The notes: generated from the letters alone by a model not told the origin. DNA of 64,000 bases from Candidatus Altimarinota bacterium (GCA_965231215.1 OZ246423.1:608001-672000), one strand, 5' to 3'; counted from the first letter of the stretch, positions 20,057-26,675 are shown. Made by a program: numbers and translations.

Positions 20057-20099
20057 AAAATTTGAACCAAAAATTTTTTGAGTTAGTATTAAAATGCAA

Positions 20100-20138
20100 A
20101 TGAGTCGCCCAAGCGGAAAAGGTCGAAAAGAAATCTAA
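20100..20138 (+). CDS. Putative leader peptide of serA: MSRPSGKGRKEI (alternative start 20094, MQ-extended)
   Basis: ATG 10 nt after TAGTAT (20084-20089) of a TTGAAC-16-TAGTAT promoter. Peptide motif shared with the glyA leader. Confidence 0.7.
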   Translation: MSRPSGKGRKEI

Positions 20139-20164
20139 ACGAAGCTTCGTTCCATCCCTTTGCG

Positions 20165-20205
20165 TGTCCCCCAAAAAACTTTGCGGGATATTTTTATTTC
20201 TTTTT
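20165..20205 (+). terminator. Attenuator-type terminator in the serA leader
   Basis: TGTCCC-C-CAAA-AAAC-TTTG-C-GGGATA, then TTTTTATTTCTTTTT, between the uORF and the serA ATG. Confidence 0.55.
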
Positions 20206-20219
20206 AACTTTTTTAAATA

Positions 20220-21449
20220 ATGAAACCATCACTCCCAAAACCTGATATTCGTATTTTGCTTCTTGAAGGGGTTCATCCTAAGGCTTTGGAATATTTTAAA
20301 AATGCTGGATATGAGAATATTGAATATTTAAAAACCGCCCTTGCTGAAGACGAGCTCATAGAGCAAATTAAAGACGTACACTTTTTAGGGATTAGATCTC
20401 GAACCCAGCTCACTAAAAACGTATTTGAGGCAGCAAATAAACTAGTCGCTGTGGGCTGTTTTTGCATCGGAACTAATCAAGTAGACCTGAAAGCCGCAAA
20501 AATGAAAGGCATCCCTGTTTTTAACGCGCCTTTTGCCAATACTCGAAGTGTCGCCGAACTAACTATCAGTTCCGCTATTCAGCTTATGCGAGGGCTCCCA
20601 GCCAAAAATGCCGCAGCTCACCGAGGAGAATGGCTCAAATCAGCTGATAATTCGTATGAAGTTAGAGGAAAAAAACTCGGCATCATTGGCTACGGAAACA
20701 TTGGATCGCAACTCAGTGTACTGGCCTCAGGTATGGGAATGCACGTCCACTACTACGATACAGAAAGCAAGCTTTCGCACGGAAATGCCAAATGCGTAGA
20801 AAGCCTAGAAGCGCTTTTAGCTCTGTCAGATGTGGTCACTCTGCATGTGCCAGAAACCCCTGAAACCAAAAATATGATGAACGCCAAAACCCTGGGCCAA
20901 ATGAAACCTGGAAGTCATTTGATTAACTATGCCCGAGGCTCTGTTATAGACATTGAAGCGTTAAAAGACGCGCTTGAATCTGGGCACCTCCACGGAGCCG
21001 CCCTAGATGTGTTCCCCAAAGAACCAAAATCTAAAGCTGAAGAATTTCAGTCTCCACTGCGAGGTATCGACAATGTGCTCATTTCTCCACACGTAGGAGG
21101 AAGCACCCAAGAGGCCCAAGAAAACATTGGAGTCGAAGTCGTTGAAAAGCTGGTAAAATACTCAGATAATGGGTCTACTGCATGGTCGGTAAACTTCCCA
21201 GAAGCCGTGCTCCCCAAACACACCGACAGCCACAGAATTCTAAATATTCACCAAAACATTCCGGGAATTCTGAGTCAGATAAATCAAATTTTTGCAGATA
21301 ACCAGGCCAATATTGTGGGGCAATTTTTACAAACCGATCCAGATATTGGATATGTAGTGATTGATATAGATACCAAAAACAATCCACAGATCTTTAAAGA
21401 AAAACTCAAATCCATTCAGGGCTCTCTTCGTACCCGTGTCCTTCACTAA
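20220..21449 (+). CDS. serA: D-3-phosphoglycerate dehydrogenase (E. coli type with ACT domain)
   Basis: GIRSRT, GCFCIGTNQVDL, FNAPFANTRSVAE, GYGNIG, PHVGGSTQEAQ, H.N.PG. Confidence 0.97.
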   Translation: MKPSLPKPDIRILLLEGVHPKALEYFKNAGYENIEYLKTALAEDELIEQIKDVHFLGIRSRTQLTKNVFEAANKLVAVGCFCIGTNQVDLKAAKMKGIPVFNAPFANTRSVAELTISSAIQLMRGLPAKNAAAHRGEWLKSADNSYEVRGKKLGIIGYGNIGSQLSVLASGMGMHVHYYDTESKLSHGNAKCVESLEALLALSDVVTLHVPETPETKNMMNAKTLGQMKPGSHLINYARGSVIDIEALKDALESGHLHGAALDVFPKEPKSKAEEFQSPLRGIDNVLISPHVGGSTQEAQENIGVEVVEKLVKYSDNGSTAWSVNFPEAVLPKHTDSHRILNIHQNIPGILSQINQIFADNQANIVGQFLQTDPDIGYVVIDIDTKNNPQIFKEKLKSIQGSLRTRVLH

Positions 21450-21450
21450 A

Positions 21451-22530
21451 ATGTTTAATATTACTTTCAATCCCGGACCATCACAGATCTCCCCTGAAAC
21501 TAAAGATGATATGCGTCGAGCCATGGATGAGCGAATACTAGAAATCTCGCACCGAAGTGCTCAATTTTCTGACATTTCCAGAAATACCATTTCCCAATTA
21601 AGGAAATATCTGGGGATCCCTAAAGACTATAAAGTGTTTTATATGAGCTCGGCTACTGCCTGCTGGCATTCTATTTTGGCCAACGGTGTAGCACAAAAAT
21701 CCTTCCATTTTATAAACGGATCCTTTTCTGAAAAATTCGCCAAAGCGTCTCAAGCTTTGGGCAAAAAATTTGATGAAAATCGGGTTGAACTCGGTCAGCA
21801 AAATTCTGTTAAAAGTGTAGCAATAGAGGGGGACTGTGAATTGATTTCTCTCTGCTACAACGAAACCAGCACCGGCGTAATGATAGAAAACCAAGACCTA
21901 AAATATCTACGTGAAACCTATCGAAAAAAGTTACTCGCAGTAGATATTACCAGTTGTGCTGGCGCCATAAACGCTCCAATCGAAAAAGCCGATGTGTGGT
22001 ATTTTTCAGTCCAAAAGTGTTTTGGCCTCCCTCCAGGGCTTGGGATTTTGATCATCAGCCCTGAAGCCTTTGAGCGTTCAAAAGTATTGGCTAATGAAGG
22101 CAAAAATATGGCAGGAATTTGGCAGTGGAGCTTCCTTGAAAAAACCATGATAAGCAAAGACCACCAAACCCCGCAAACTCCGAATATACTAAATATTTTC
22201 CTCCTGGGAGAACAGTGTAAAAGATGGAATGCAGAAGGCGGCTTGAAGGCAAAAGAGAAGCTCACTCAAGACAAAGCTCAAATGATTAAACAGTGGGTAC
22301 AAAGCCATCCTCAACTTGAATTTTTTGTGTCGAATGAACGCTACAGATCTACCACCGCTTTAACGATTAAATCCACTCCAGAATTTATAGAAAAGATTCA
22401 TAAAACCTGCAGCGAAAATAAGATTGTGATGGGCAAAGGTTACGGGGATACTAAATCTTACGTGTTTCGGATTGCTAACTTTCCAAGTGTGACTAAAGCC
22501 AATTTAGAAACTTTATTTGATCTTATTTAG
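21451..22530 (+). CDS. serC: Phosphoserine aminotransferase
   Basis: FNPGPS, EISHRS, NETSTG, D.TS, FSVQKCFG (PLP Lys), TP..L.I, RIANF. Confidence 0.88.
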   Translation: MFNITFNPGPSQISPETKDDMRRAMDERILEISHRSAQFSDISRNTISQLRKYLGIPKDYKVFYMSSATACWHSILANGVAQKSFHFINGSFSEKFAKASQALGKKFDENRVELGQQNSVKSVAIEGDCELISLCYNETSTGVMIENQDLKYLRETYRKKLLAVDITSCAGAINAPIEKADVWYFSVQKCFGLPPGLGILIISPEAFERSKVLANEGKNMAGIWQWSFLEKTMISKDHQTPQTPNILNIFLLGEQCKRWNAEGGLKAKEKLTQDKAQMIKQWVQSHPQLEFFVSNERYRSTTALTIKSTPEFIEKIHKTCSENKIVMGKGYGDTKSYVFRIANFPSVTKANLETLFDLI

Positions 22531-25154: not shown

Positions 25155-25179
25155 AAAAAAGCCCTACTTCCGTAGGGCT
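25155..25179 (-). terminator. Intrinsic terminator after glyA
   Basis: AGCCCTAC-GGAA-GTAGGGCT followed by a T run on the minus strand. Confidence 0.8.
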
Positions 25180-25200
25180 CTAGTTGAATTTAAATTTTTC

Positions 25201-26478
25201 CTAAACAAAACTATCTGGAATTGGGAAGTCATGAGCTATTTGCCGAACTTCTTCCCGTATTTTTTCTTTTACGCCTGAATCATCTTTATTCCGCATAGCT
25301 TCAATCATAAGCTCAGCCACTCGTGCAGATTCTGCCTCTTTCAACCCACGAGTGGTAATAGCCGGCGTTCCAAATCGGATACCTGATGGATCAAACATAC
25401 TCCGCGGTTCATCAGCAATAGCGTTTTTATTCAGCGTAATGCCTACCTCGTCCAGTACGTCTTCCGCTTCTTGACCACTCACTCCAAGTGAACCAAAGAC
25501 ATCAGCCAAAAGTAAGTGGTTATCCGTTCCGCCTCCCATAAGCCTTACGCCTGCGTCTAGGAAAACCTTTTCCATAGCTTTGGCGTTTTTGAGGATCTGT
25601 TGACAGTGCTCTTTGAATTCTGGTTTGAGGGCTTCTCCAAAGGCAATCGCTCTTCCGGCAATAATATGCATATGTGGCCCTCCTTGCATTCCTGGGAAAA
25701 CCGATTTATCAATTTTTTTCGCAATTTCTGGATCTTCACGAGTCAGGATCATTCCTCCTCTCGGCCCTCGAAGCGTTTTGTGTGTCGTAGTCAGAATTAC
25801 ATCAAACCCATCATCAAATGGATTTCGCACGGCTCCTCCTGCAATAAGACCGGCAATATGTGCCATATCGGCTACAGCCAAAGCGCCAACTTCTCGAGCA
25901 ATCTCGACAAATTTAGCATAATCAAGTTCCCGAGAGTAGGCAGAAAATCCGGCCAAAATCATTTTGGGTTTTTCTTTCAATGCGACTTCTCGCATTGCTT
26001 CATAATCAATTTCTCCCGTGTCTGGATCTTTCATTTTGTACCGCACAAAGTTAAAAACTTTGGTAATATGTGTCACTGGGTGACCGTGCGTTAGGTGTCC
26101 TCCATGAGAAAGATCCATCCCCAGAATCGTATCCCCAGGTTCAAGTAGGGCAAAATAAGTAGCCAGGTTGGCCGGCGCTCCGGAATGAGGCTGCACGTTG
26201 GCAAACTTACAGTTAAAAAGTTTGCACGCTCGCTCAATACAGAGTTCTTCAAGTGGATCTGTAAAGTGTTGGCCTCCGTAGTAACGTTTACGAGGATAGC
26301 CTTCTGAATATTTATTGGTAAAGCAGCTTCCCATGGCCTCATGACAGGCTTTAGAAACATAATTTTCTGAGGGGATGAGCTCTAGACCGTTGGCTTCTCG
26401 ATCTTCTTCTCCACGAATAAGTTTGGCGATTGCTGCGTCTTGAGCTTCAATGTGTGGAATCGGTTGTGCAGTAGACAT
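25201..26478 (-). CDS. glyA: Serine hydroxymethyltransferase
   Basis: LELIPSEN, NKYSEGYP..RYYGG, GGHLTHG, TTTHKTLRGPRGG, FPGMQGGP. Confidence 0.98.
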   Translation of the reverse strand: MSTAQPIPHIEAQDAAIAKLIRGEEDREANGLELIPSENYVSKACHEAMGSCFTNKYSEGYPRKRYYGGQHFTDPLEELCIERACKLFNCKFANVQPHSGAPANLATYFALLEPGDTILGMDLSHGGHLTHGHPVTHITKVFNFVRYKMKDPDTGEIDYEAMREVALKEKPKMILAGFSAYSRELDYAKFVEIAREVGALAVADMAHIAGLIAGGAVRNPFDDGFDVILTTTHKTLRGPRGGMILTREDPEIAKKIDKSVFPGMQGGPHMHIIAGRAIAFGEALKPEFKEHCQQILKNAKAMEKVFLDAGVRLMGGGTDNHLLLADVFGSLGVSGQEAEDVLDEVGITLNKNAIADEPRSMFDPSGIRFGTPAITTRGLKEAESARVAELMIEAMRNKDDSGVKEKIREEVRQIAHDFPIPDSFV

Positions 26479-26501
26479 AAGTTTTTGAAGTTTAAAAAAA
26501 T

Positions 26502-26527
26502 AAAAAATCGTCAGAACCTCCGACGAT
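26502..26527 (-). terminator. Attenuator-type terminator in the glyA leader
   Basis: ATCGTCGGA-GGT-TCTGACGAT followed by a T run, ~25 nt before the glyA ATG. Confidence 0.75.
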
Positions 26528-26551
26528 AAAATTAAAGAGCAACTCCAAAAA

Positions 26552-26620
26552 CTAAACCTCTTTTCGACCTTTTCCAGAAGGTCTATTCGAGGTTAGATTT
26601 TTGGATGTTTTGTGGGTCAT
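26552..26620 (-). CDS. Putative leader peptide of glyA: MTHKTSKNLTSNRPSGKGRKEV
   Basis: ATG 10 nt after TAGTAT of a TTGAAT-17-TAGTAT promoter. C-terminal motif shared with the serA leader. Confidence 0.72.
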   Translation of the reverse strand: MTHKTSKNLTSNRPSGKGRKEV

Positions 26621-26675
26621 TTGTAGTCCGATACTAAGCAAAACCCACATTCGATTCAAGATTTTTTTATGCTTT

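Follow-up and report, generated by a model that had tools for sequence, protein, structure and literature searches.

A candidate leader-peptide family with a stop-adjacent decapeptide upstream of serine, glycine and one-carbon genes in Peregrinibacteria-type bacteria

In the TnaC leader, the nascent chain and a metabolite together block release at the stop codon, and the ribosome, once stalled, governs transcription of the operon behind it (PMC8429421). The ornithine-sensing leader SpeFL is reported to control transcription of its downstream operon through arrest at the stop codon (10.1101/604074), and the MsrDL leader (PMC10314930) combines arrest at the stop codon with a Rho-independent terminator between leader and gene that is bypassed by the polymerase, the stalled ribosome being described as obstructing or unwinding this terminator. 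Leaderless short open reading frames (ORFs) encoding polycysteine in mycobacteria lie at the 5' ends of operon transcripts and are reported to act as amino-acid-responsive attenuators (10.1101/834739). Here we analyze a 64,000-nt stretch of Candidatus Altimarinota bacterium (GCA_965231215.1, OZ246423.1:608001-672000; hereafter the window), in which two upstream ORFs (uORFs) end in the same ten residues but for the last, RPSGKGRKE[I/V], directly followed by a stop codon. One of them (MSRPSGKGRKEI-stop, 20100-20138, plus strand) precedes serA, and the other (MTHKTSKNLTSNRPSGKGRKEV-stop, 26620-26552, minus strand) precedes glyA. An earlier note made from this stretch alone had taken them for a candidate new Ser/Gly-sensing regulatory peptide; the uORFs, promoter-like boxes, hairpins and 17-nt identity that it listed are all present, and its interpretation is, overall, partly supported. 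We find 34 copies of the element in the genomes of one bacterial family, and their codon-periodic variation bears, as far as sequence comparison goes, the signature of a translated decapeptide, its stop fixed, under purifying selection, rather than the signature of an RNA motif.

The element would act in the manner of a leader or arrest peptide yet belongs to no described family that we searched, and from each of the classical, TnaC/SpeFL and MsrDL types it departs in one or more of the defining features tested. With TnaC and SpeFL, which are found in Enterobacteria, it shares a short uORF and conserved residues close to the stop codon, a pattern that would be expected of a chain acting in the upper exit tunnel and at the peptidyl-transferase center, as in TnaC (PMC8429421). 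Unlike these two, it precedes biosynthetic one-carbon, serine and glycine genes, its uORF is predicted to be nearly leaderless, and there is no sequence similarity, the five of the 34 leader peptides that were compared having no Pfam or NCBIfam match. TnaC hides a Rho loading site, whereas the decapeptide leaders have a hairpin and U-run in an organism where no Rho RNA-binding domain was found. MsrDL, like the present leaders, has a very short leader ORF and an intrinsic terminator before the gene, and offers a precedent for stop-codon arrest that controls such a terminator. Yet it senses macrolides and precedes a resistance gene, whereas the decapeptide leaders precede metabolic genes, and their hairpin lies mostly 21-26 nt past the stop, beyond the expected reach of the ribosome, with no pairing partner found. 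The mycobacterial ORFs use runs of Cys codons, whereas the decapeptide family is fixed in sequence, has no codon run and belongs to a different phylum.

Classical attenuators such as trpL, hisL, pheL and thrL combine runs of regulatory codons with an antiterminator/terminator pair, while the rest of their peptide varies. The decapeptide leaders resemble them in carrying a leader ORF and, in 24 of 34 cases, an intrinsic terminator before amino-acid biosynthetic genes, but they have no codon run, the order of the residues is invariant and no antiterminator was found. In other bacteria, glyA, folate and Gly/Ser genes are controlled by ZTP, tetrahydrofolate (THF) and glycine riboswitches and by T-box leaders. 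The family shares the cis-regulatory leader position and an overlapping regulon with these structured RNAs; unlike them, it has no Rfam match and is conserved at the amino-acid level. A cmscan of window positions 19000-28000 against Rfam, with E up to 10, returned seven chance-level matches, none overlapping a leader in the sense direction. The five leader peptides searched against Pfam and NCBIfam, also with E up to 10, matched 0 families, the HMMER filters being weak for queries of 21-23 residues, and the searched literature, whose supplements lay outside the scope, held neither a match to the motif nor any such leader peptide before glyA or serA. Within these searches, the motif can be placed in no described family, as the earlier note had already remarked.

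Conservation and spread of the decapeptide

All 34 copies end in R-[P/R]-x-G-K-G-R-[K/M]-E-[I/V]-stop, and all have an in-frame ATG 12-34 codons before the stop. Across these copies the entropy at codon positions 1, 2 and 3 is 0.34, 0.22 and 1.40 bits, respectively, compared with about 1.8 bits in the flanks (30 nt upstream and 40 nt downstream); synonymous sites are thus close to saturation, Arg is encoded by CGN as well as by AGA/AGG, and the stop itself occurs as TAG (17 copies), TAA (12) and TGA (5). This conservation is not imposed by the way the copies were collected: the frame, the upstream ATG and the [I/V]-stop ending are kept in 14/14 distinct matches of a 27-nt scan and likewise in 21/21 matches anchored on glyA, although neither search required a stop. 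Selection had been proposed to act on the peptide and not on the nucleotides, and the relatives bear this out; the opposite outcome, nucleotides kept while frame or stop is lost, was looked for among them and did not occur. The conserved part is confined to the ten residues adjoining the stop, the N-terminal parts differing in both length and sequence. Within the decapeptide, the two glycines, split by a Lys, are invariant and use both GGR and GGY codons, Pro is replaced by Arg in 4/34 copies, Lys by Met once, and the last residue is Val in 22 and Ile in 12. The third residue, on which a proposed sensing of Ser codons would depend, is Ser in only 16 of the 34 copies and otherwise Val (9), Ile (5), Arg (3) or Thr (1), so that this part of the earlier proposal does not hold.

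An alternative genetic code was considered and rejected. No glyA of the family contains an internal TGA, and TGA is therefore taken as a stop. Internal stops of any kind are lacking in the glyA of 42 of the 43 family genomes, the remaining one (G041) having a single TAG.

The 34 copies come from a family-wide scan with a degenerate pattern and are found in 26 of the 43 genomes and 13 of the 25 genera of the family, with up to three copies per genome (G004). All of them match the pattern with 0 mismatches, though one was permitted, and the reversed pattern, used as a control, gave 0 matches. A back-translated 27-nt pattern lacking the last residue and the stop had been run on 41 relatives; it matched at 16 places in 10 genomes (reversed control, 0), and in 0/16 genomes from other families of the same class. 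Independently of the motif, glyA was located in 43/43 family genomes, and 40 upstream regions were taken, leaving out G015, G021 and G056, whose glyA matches were truncated. A peptide regular expression without stop found the motif in 21/40 of these regions, and reading the remaining 19 revealed one more leader (G047, RPSGKGRMEI-stop). In G023, the leader lies farther upstream of glyA, with a gene for a 118-residue protein of the 23S_rRNA_IVP family (Pfam; L030:851-1204, plus strand) in between. An ORF that by eye looks like the same family stands directly before glyA in G053 (L066), a genome in which no copy of the motif was found.

Beyond the family, the exact degenerate pattern was searched in one genome per species of 185,579 species and returned 28 stretches, 27 of which come from entries named Candidatus Peribacteria, Gracilibacteria, Altimarinota or plainly "bacterium". 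The sole match outside the Peribacteria-type family was a Rhodospirillales metagenome-assembled genome (RPNGKGSKEI-stop), which we regard as a chance match, as it has Ser for Arg and lacks an in-frame ATG. Metagenomes yielded 33 stretches. Further leaders of this type account for 22 of them, with glyA next in 17 cases, the small ORF described below in two, an ORF for a 158-residue protein of unknown function in two and serA in one; three stretches lack an in-frame ATG. The other eight were rejected as unrelated: in these loci (L119, L121, L125, L132, L137, L139, L147 and L150) RRxGKG[S/R]KE[I/V]W lies in frame inside a long ORF, because a pattern ending in TRR also reads TGG. In six of the eight, the flanks contain a recurring segment of the form ...HHxxF...Y..FW..L..GE...G...

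Architecture of the leaders

In the window, the serA leader opens on the plus strand with promoter-like boxes identified by reading the sequence, TTGAAC (20062-20067) and TAGTAT (20084-20089), separated by a 16-nt spacer. The ATG at 20100 lies 10 nt past the -10 box, an alternative in-frame ATG lies at 20094, and the conserved core RPSGKGRKEI with its TAA spans 20106-20138. An imperfect hairpin of about -11 kcal/mol (20164-20191), beginning 25 nt past the uORF stop and followed by a T-rich run to 20210, forms a putative intrinsic terminator, after which come serA (20220-21449; 2-Hacid_dh and ACT in Pfam) and, overlapping it, serC (21436-22530; Aminotran_5), both on the plus strand. The glyA leader repeats this layout on the minus strand, with TTGAAT (26659-26654), a 17-nt spacer, TAGTAT (26636-26631), an ATG at 26620 that is again 10 nt past the -10 box, and the core with its TAG at 26584-26552. 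Its putative intrinsic terminator (26494-26527) consists of a 9-bp hairpin (26527-26507) that begins 24 nt past the uORF stop and is followed by TTTTTTATTTTTTT; the gene itself (25201-26478, minus strand) encodes serine hydroxymethyltransferase (SHMT in Pfam, E 2.8e-147). Both leaders are more stably folded than shuffled sequences (z of -2.66 for serA and -3.81 for glyA). A stricter consensus scan ranks the glyA hairpin second among terminator-like sites in 19500-27500 and lists neither the serA hairpin nor either of the promoters, which score 8/12 and fall under its threshold.

The codons for R-P-S are CGC CCA AGC in one of the two leaders and AGA CCT TCT in the other, and the 17 nt that follow are identical in both. 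This 17-mer has exactly two exact copies in the 1,326,059-bp genome, a weak statistic alone, given that at least two matches, with up to three mismatches, were obtained in 16 of 100 shuffles; it is the comparison with relatives, not this count, that places the element above chance. A six-frame peptide search found no copies in the window's genome beyond these two. The genes efp (22523-23083, minus strand) and mnmA (24013-25092, plus strand; tRNA 2-thiouridylase) lie between the two leaders; this placement of genes for ribosome pausing and decoding is probably a coincidence.

A leader made of promoter, uORF and terminator before Ser/Gly genes, as had been described for the window, recurs in the relatives. 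Promoter geometry was assessed as TTGNNN, 16-18 nt, TANNNT and then 5-12 nt to an in-frame ATG; it is present in 21/34 leaders, whereas 200 shuffles gave a mean of about 1/34 and a maximum of 4. These 21 leaders have only 7-12 nt between the end of the -10 box and the ATG, so that the uORF is predicted to lie at or a few nucleotides from the 5' end of the transcript, that is, to be leaderless or nearly so. Promoter-like patterns are found upstream of the core in 23/34 leaders as opposed to 4/34 between uORF and gene, and the downstream genes thus seem to depend on read-through. The nearest ORF downstream is on the strand of the leader in 34/34, the search having covered that strand alone. Translation initiation in the window organism also seems independent of Shine-Dalgarno sequences, as these are depleted: among 759 long ORFs of its genome, GGAG, GAGG or AGGA occurs in 3% of the -20..-4 regions versus 7.5% of the -60..-44 regions. 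The regions upstream of genes are A/T-rich in this genome.

A crude finder detected a hairpin followed by a T-run in 24/34 leaders, with the stem starting mostly 21-26 nt past the stop (full range 3-65 nt, including extended stems and one likely mis-call), and the downstream gene starts 25-50 nt past the hairpin and U-run. No Rho RNA-binding domain (Rho_RNA_bind) was found in the window's genome, which is 99.29% complete, while the same search matched 9/14 reference genomes as a control; this fits the use of intrinsic terminators. Between terminator and start codon, a TTTTAAC or TTAAC motif is found in the window (20200-20219 and 26479-26500) and at many other loci (for instance L064 and L066). 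It is enriched before starts genome-wide (8.8% of -45..-5 regions versus 3.1% of random 40-nt windows), peaks at -20..-10 and is in some cases repeated in tandem.

Genes downstream of the leaders

The 34 leaders precede glyA in 23 cases, serA, or a serB-like HAD gene followed by serA, in five, a DHFR-dcd pair in two, a Vut_1 vitamin transporter in one and unknown proteins in three. The leaders of the DHFR-dcd type (G004 and G018) sit between thyA and the DHFR (RibD_C/DHFR_1)-dcd pair, with an unknown ORF coming first. The genes glyA, DHFR, dcd and ser, taken with thyA, constitute the thymidylate/one-carbon cycle and the serine supply that feeds it. The theme of the regulon is the supply of one-carbon units and thymidylate, broader than serine and glycine alone. 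The leaders before Ser/Gly genes bear out the earlier proposal on this point; the serB-like HAD gene, DHFR-dcd near thyA and Vut_1 make the regulon wider than it had foreseen. The window also contains a tight plus-strand cluster of thyA (57686-58531), a DHFR-like gene (58543-59046) and dcd (59092-59742), and no leader was found at this cluster (57686-59742).

Several of the first ORFs after the leaders deserve mention on their own. A family of small ORFs (91-119 residues, 48-61% identity; L007:1132-1413 on the minus strand, L020:1611-1883 and L015:1607-1963 on the plus strand, and L126), with no Pfam match, opens those serB-serA or DHFR-dcd operons that follow a leader in the genus of the window organism. 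In G002 and G003 a conserved ORF of 94-119 residues and of no known family opens the serB/serA operons, and in G004 the first ORF before the DHFR-dcd pair belongs to the small-ORF family, whereas the 152-residue ORF of G018 matches none of the others. Protein Atlas results for two unknown downstream proteins were weak (0.92 with 161 shared features, from Cu-oxidase-like clusters, and 0.76) and were not used; the Cu-oxidase-like lead concerns the small-ORF family. Two of the three unknown targets, L044:472-924 (plus strand, G043) and L047:4603-5052 (minus strand, G041), are homologous (29% identity over 108 residues, E 2e-7) and without Pfam family, and glyA has no leader in these genera. Two loci have a long ORF that runs in frame into the decapeptide and ends with it and its stop: an F420_ligase-like ORF before the Vut_1 transporter (L023:1439-2278, minus strand) and, in a metagenome, one of at least 482 codons immediately ahead of serA (L142). 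The motif would here be either a uORF that overlaps the gene end in the same frame or the C-terminal tail of a full-length protein.

Mechanism and rival explanations

We see about an even chance that the element is a cis-acting leader peptide whose nascent chain stalls the ribosome at the stop codon and thereby modulates terminator read-through for one-carbon genes. In such a scheme, a sigma-70-like promoter would set the transcript's 5' end on the ATG of a uORF of 12-34 codons, or no more than a few nucleotides away from it, and the conserved C-terminal decapeptide, acting as a nascent chain within the ribosome, would delay or prevent termination at the stop codon in the manner of an arrest peptide. 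Ribosome occupancy at the stop would be modulated, probably by a metabolite of one-carbon, serine, glycine or thymidylate metabolism, and would in turn set the read-through of RNA polymerase across the intrinsic terminator into glyA, serB-serA-serC, DHFR-dcd or the vitamin transporter gene. Translation of the uORF, ribosome arrest, the nature of the signal, which way control runs and how the ribosome is coupled to the terminator are our inferences from sequence. A stall at the stop codon, as in TnaC and MsrDL, is favored because the residues are invariant only beside a fixed stop and lie in cis before a terminator.

A number of observations weigh against this scheme. No antiterminator was found: by masked partition-function folding of 24 leaders, the probability of the terminator is largely unchanged whether the leader is free, masked at the stop or masked at the Gly codons. 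Five single leaders (L031, L043, L047, L038 and L046) do change, but the set as a whole does not; this folding is a thermodynamic prediction, with kinetic folding outside its reach. Duplex energies, compared with 200 dinucleotide shuffles per leader, were no better than the shuffles, either for the motif against the spacer plus 5' arm (mean z +0.33) or for the N-terminal coding region against the terminator (mean z -0.13), and an antiterminator that depends on ribosome position, for which neither the masked folding nor the duplex energies gave a consistent signal, was rejected. A ribosome at the stop codon would be expected, from the size of its footprint, to end about 10 nt or more short of the hairpin, which makes direct occlusion as in MsrDL unlikely. 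The decapeptide resembles no known arrest peptide. Ten of the 34 leaders lack a hairpin with T-run according to the crude finder, some of them having, by eye, hairpins with weak U-runs. Finally, a promoter, a small ORF and a terminator are also what a free-standing micro-gene looks like. Stop read-through or frameshifting into the terminator was considered as well and rejected, as the next stop follows within 24 nt in 11/34 leaders for read-through, 13/34 for -1 and 10/34 for +1 frameshifting; several leaders have tandem stops. The K-G-R of the decapeptide would correspond to the "+x+" pattern described for macrolide-dependent arrest.

That the small ORF is such a micro-gene, its basic product of 12-34 residues acting in trans and its neighborhood reflecting conserved synteny, is an unlikely explanation in our view. 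It would account for the promoter-like boxes and the hairpin with T-run that each copy has of its own, for the strong purifying selection on the peptide and for the lack of a detectable antiterminator. Yet genomes with two or three copies have them with differing N-termini, each directly before a functionally linked gene, the nearest downstream ORF being on the same strand in all 34 cases (that strand alone was searched), and promoter-like patterns are scarce between small ORF and gene (4/34, versus 23/34 upstream). Peptides as short as 12-13 residues that are conserved only at their stop-side end, and the in-frame fusions to long ORFs in L023 and L142, also argue against a product acting in trans. 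There is only a slim chance, to our mind, that the leaders sense codon supply, with a ribosome slowing at the two Gly codons (or at those for Lys, Arg or Glu) and thereby refolding the leader RNA. Two invariant Gly codons before genes that make glycine and serine, the layout of a leader with an intrinsic terminator, and single genes for tRNA-Lys(UUU) and tRNA-Glu(UUC) in the genome are consistent with it. On the other hand, regulatory codons do not occur in a run, Ser is not kept at its position, GGR and GGY codons are both used although different tRNAs read them, the order of all ten residues is invariant although codon sensing does not need it, and no alternative structure tells apart ribosomes placed at the Gly codons and at the stop. 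MnmEG uses glycine and methylene-THF to make cmnm5U34 on tRNAs for Lys, Glu, Gly and Arg. A sensing of this tRNA modification was rejected: no full-length MnmG was found, only two N-terminal matches covering 40-60 of the 391 GIDA positions, and the third positions of the Gly codons are not limited to A or G.

An RNA or DNA element, be it a riboswitch, a protein-binding site or an operator, that is open in one frame by accident can be very nearly discounted, and the codon-periodic variation of the sequences already contradicts it. The 17 identical nucleotides of the two window copies would suit such an element, as would the inverted repeat inherent in the R-P and G-R codons (CGNCC/GGNCG), which gives a small hairpin in several glyA leaders. 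But codon positions 1 and 2 are fixed and the third varies almost freely. Arg is encoded now by CGN, now by AGR, and Pro changes to Arg in 4/34, both of which would be expected to break the repeat, and core positions 3 and 18 could pair in only 18/34 copies (read by hand). Moreover, all three stop codons are in use, and the Rfam scan of 19000-28000 (E up to 10) gave no matching family. Rho-dependent control was rejected too, no Rho RNA-binding domain having been found in the genome.

Within the reading as a stop-codon stall, one may go further and see the decapeptide as a sensor of one-carbon or folate status whose metabolite-dependent arrest gates the terminator without any RNA antiterminator, a version that we put forward tentatively and hold to be rather doubtful. 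Leaderless initiation depends on formyl-Met-tRNA, and for this reason initiation on the uORF could itself report the supply of 10-formyl-THF. If such a sensor exists, it would be the peptide counterpart of the ZTP or THF riboswitches in uncultivated Peregrinibacteria-type bacteria, and it would use a route of ribosome-to-polymerase coupling that has not yet been described.

To our knowledge, regulatory nascent peptides that respond to metabolites are few in bacteria, with TnaC and SpeFL as examples, and none tied to serine, glycine or folate metabolism was found in the searched literature, this metabolism being elsewhere under the control of riboswitches, T-boxes or proteins. The family offers 34 natural variants of a sharply defined ten-residue motif together with a defined regulon. 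Its architecture is unusual, with a near-leaderless uORF in a genome poor in Shine-Dalgarno sequences, a near-constant distance to the terminator and no detectable antiterminator, and it would represent a rare documented cis-regulatory mechanism in bacteria of the candidate phyla.

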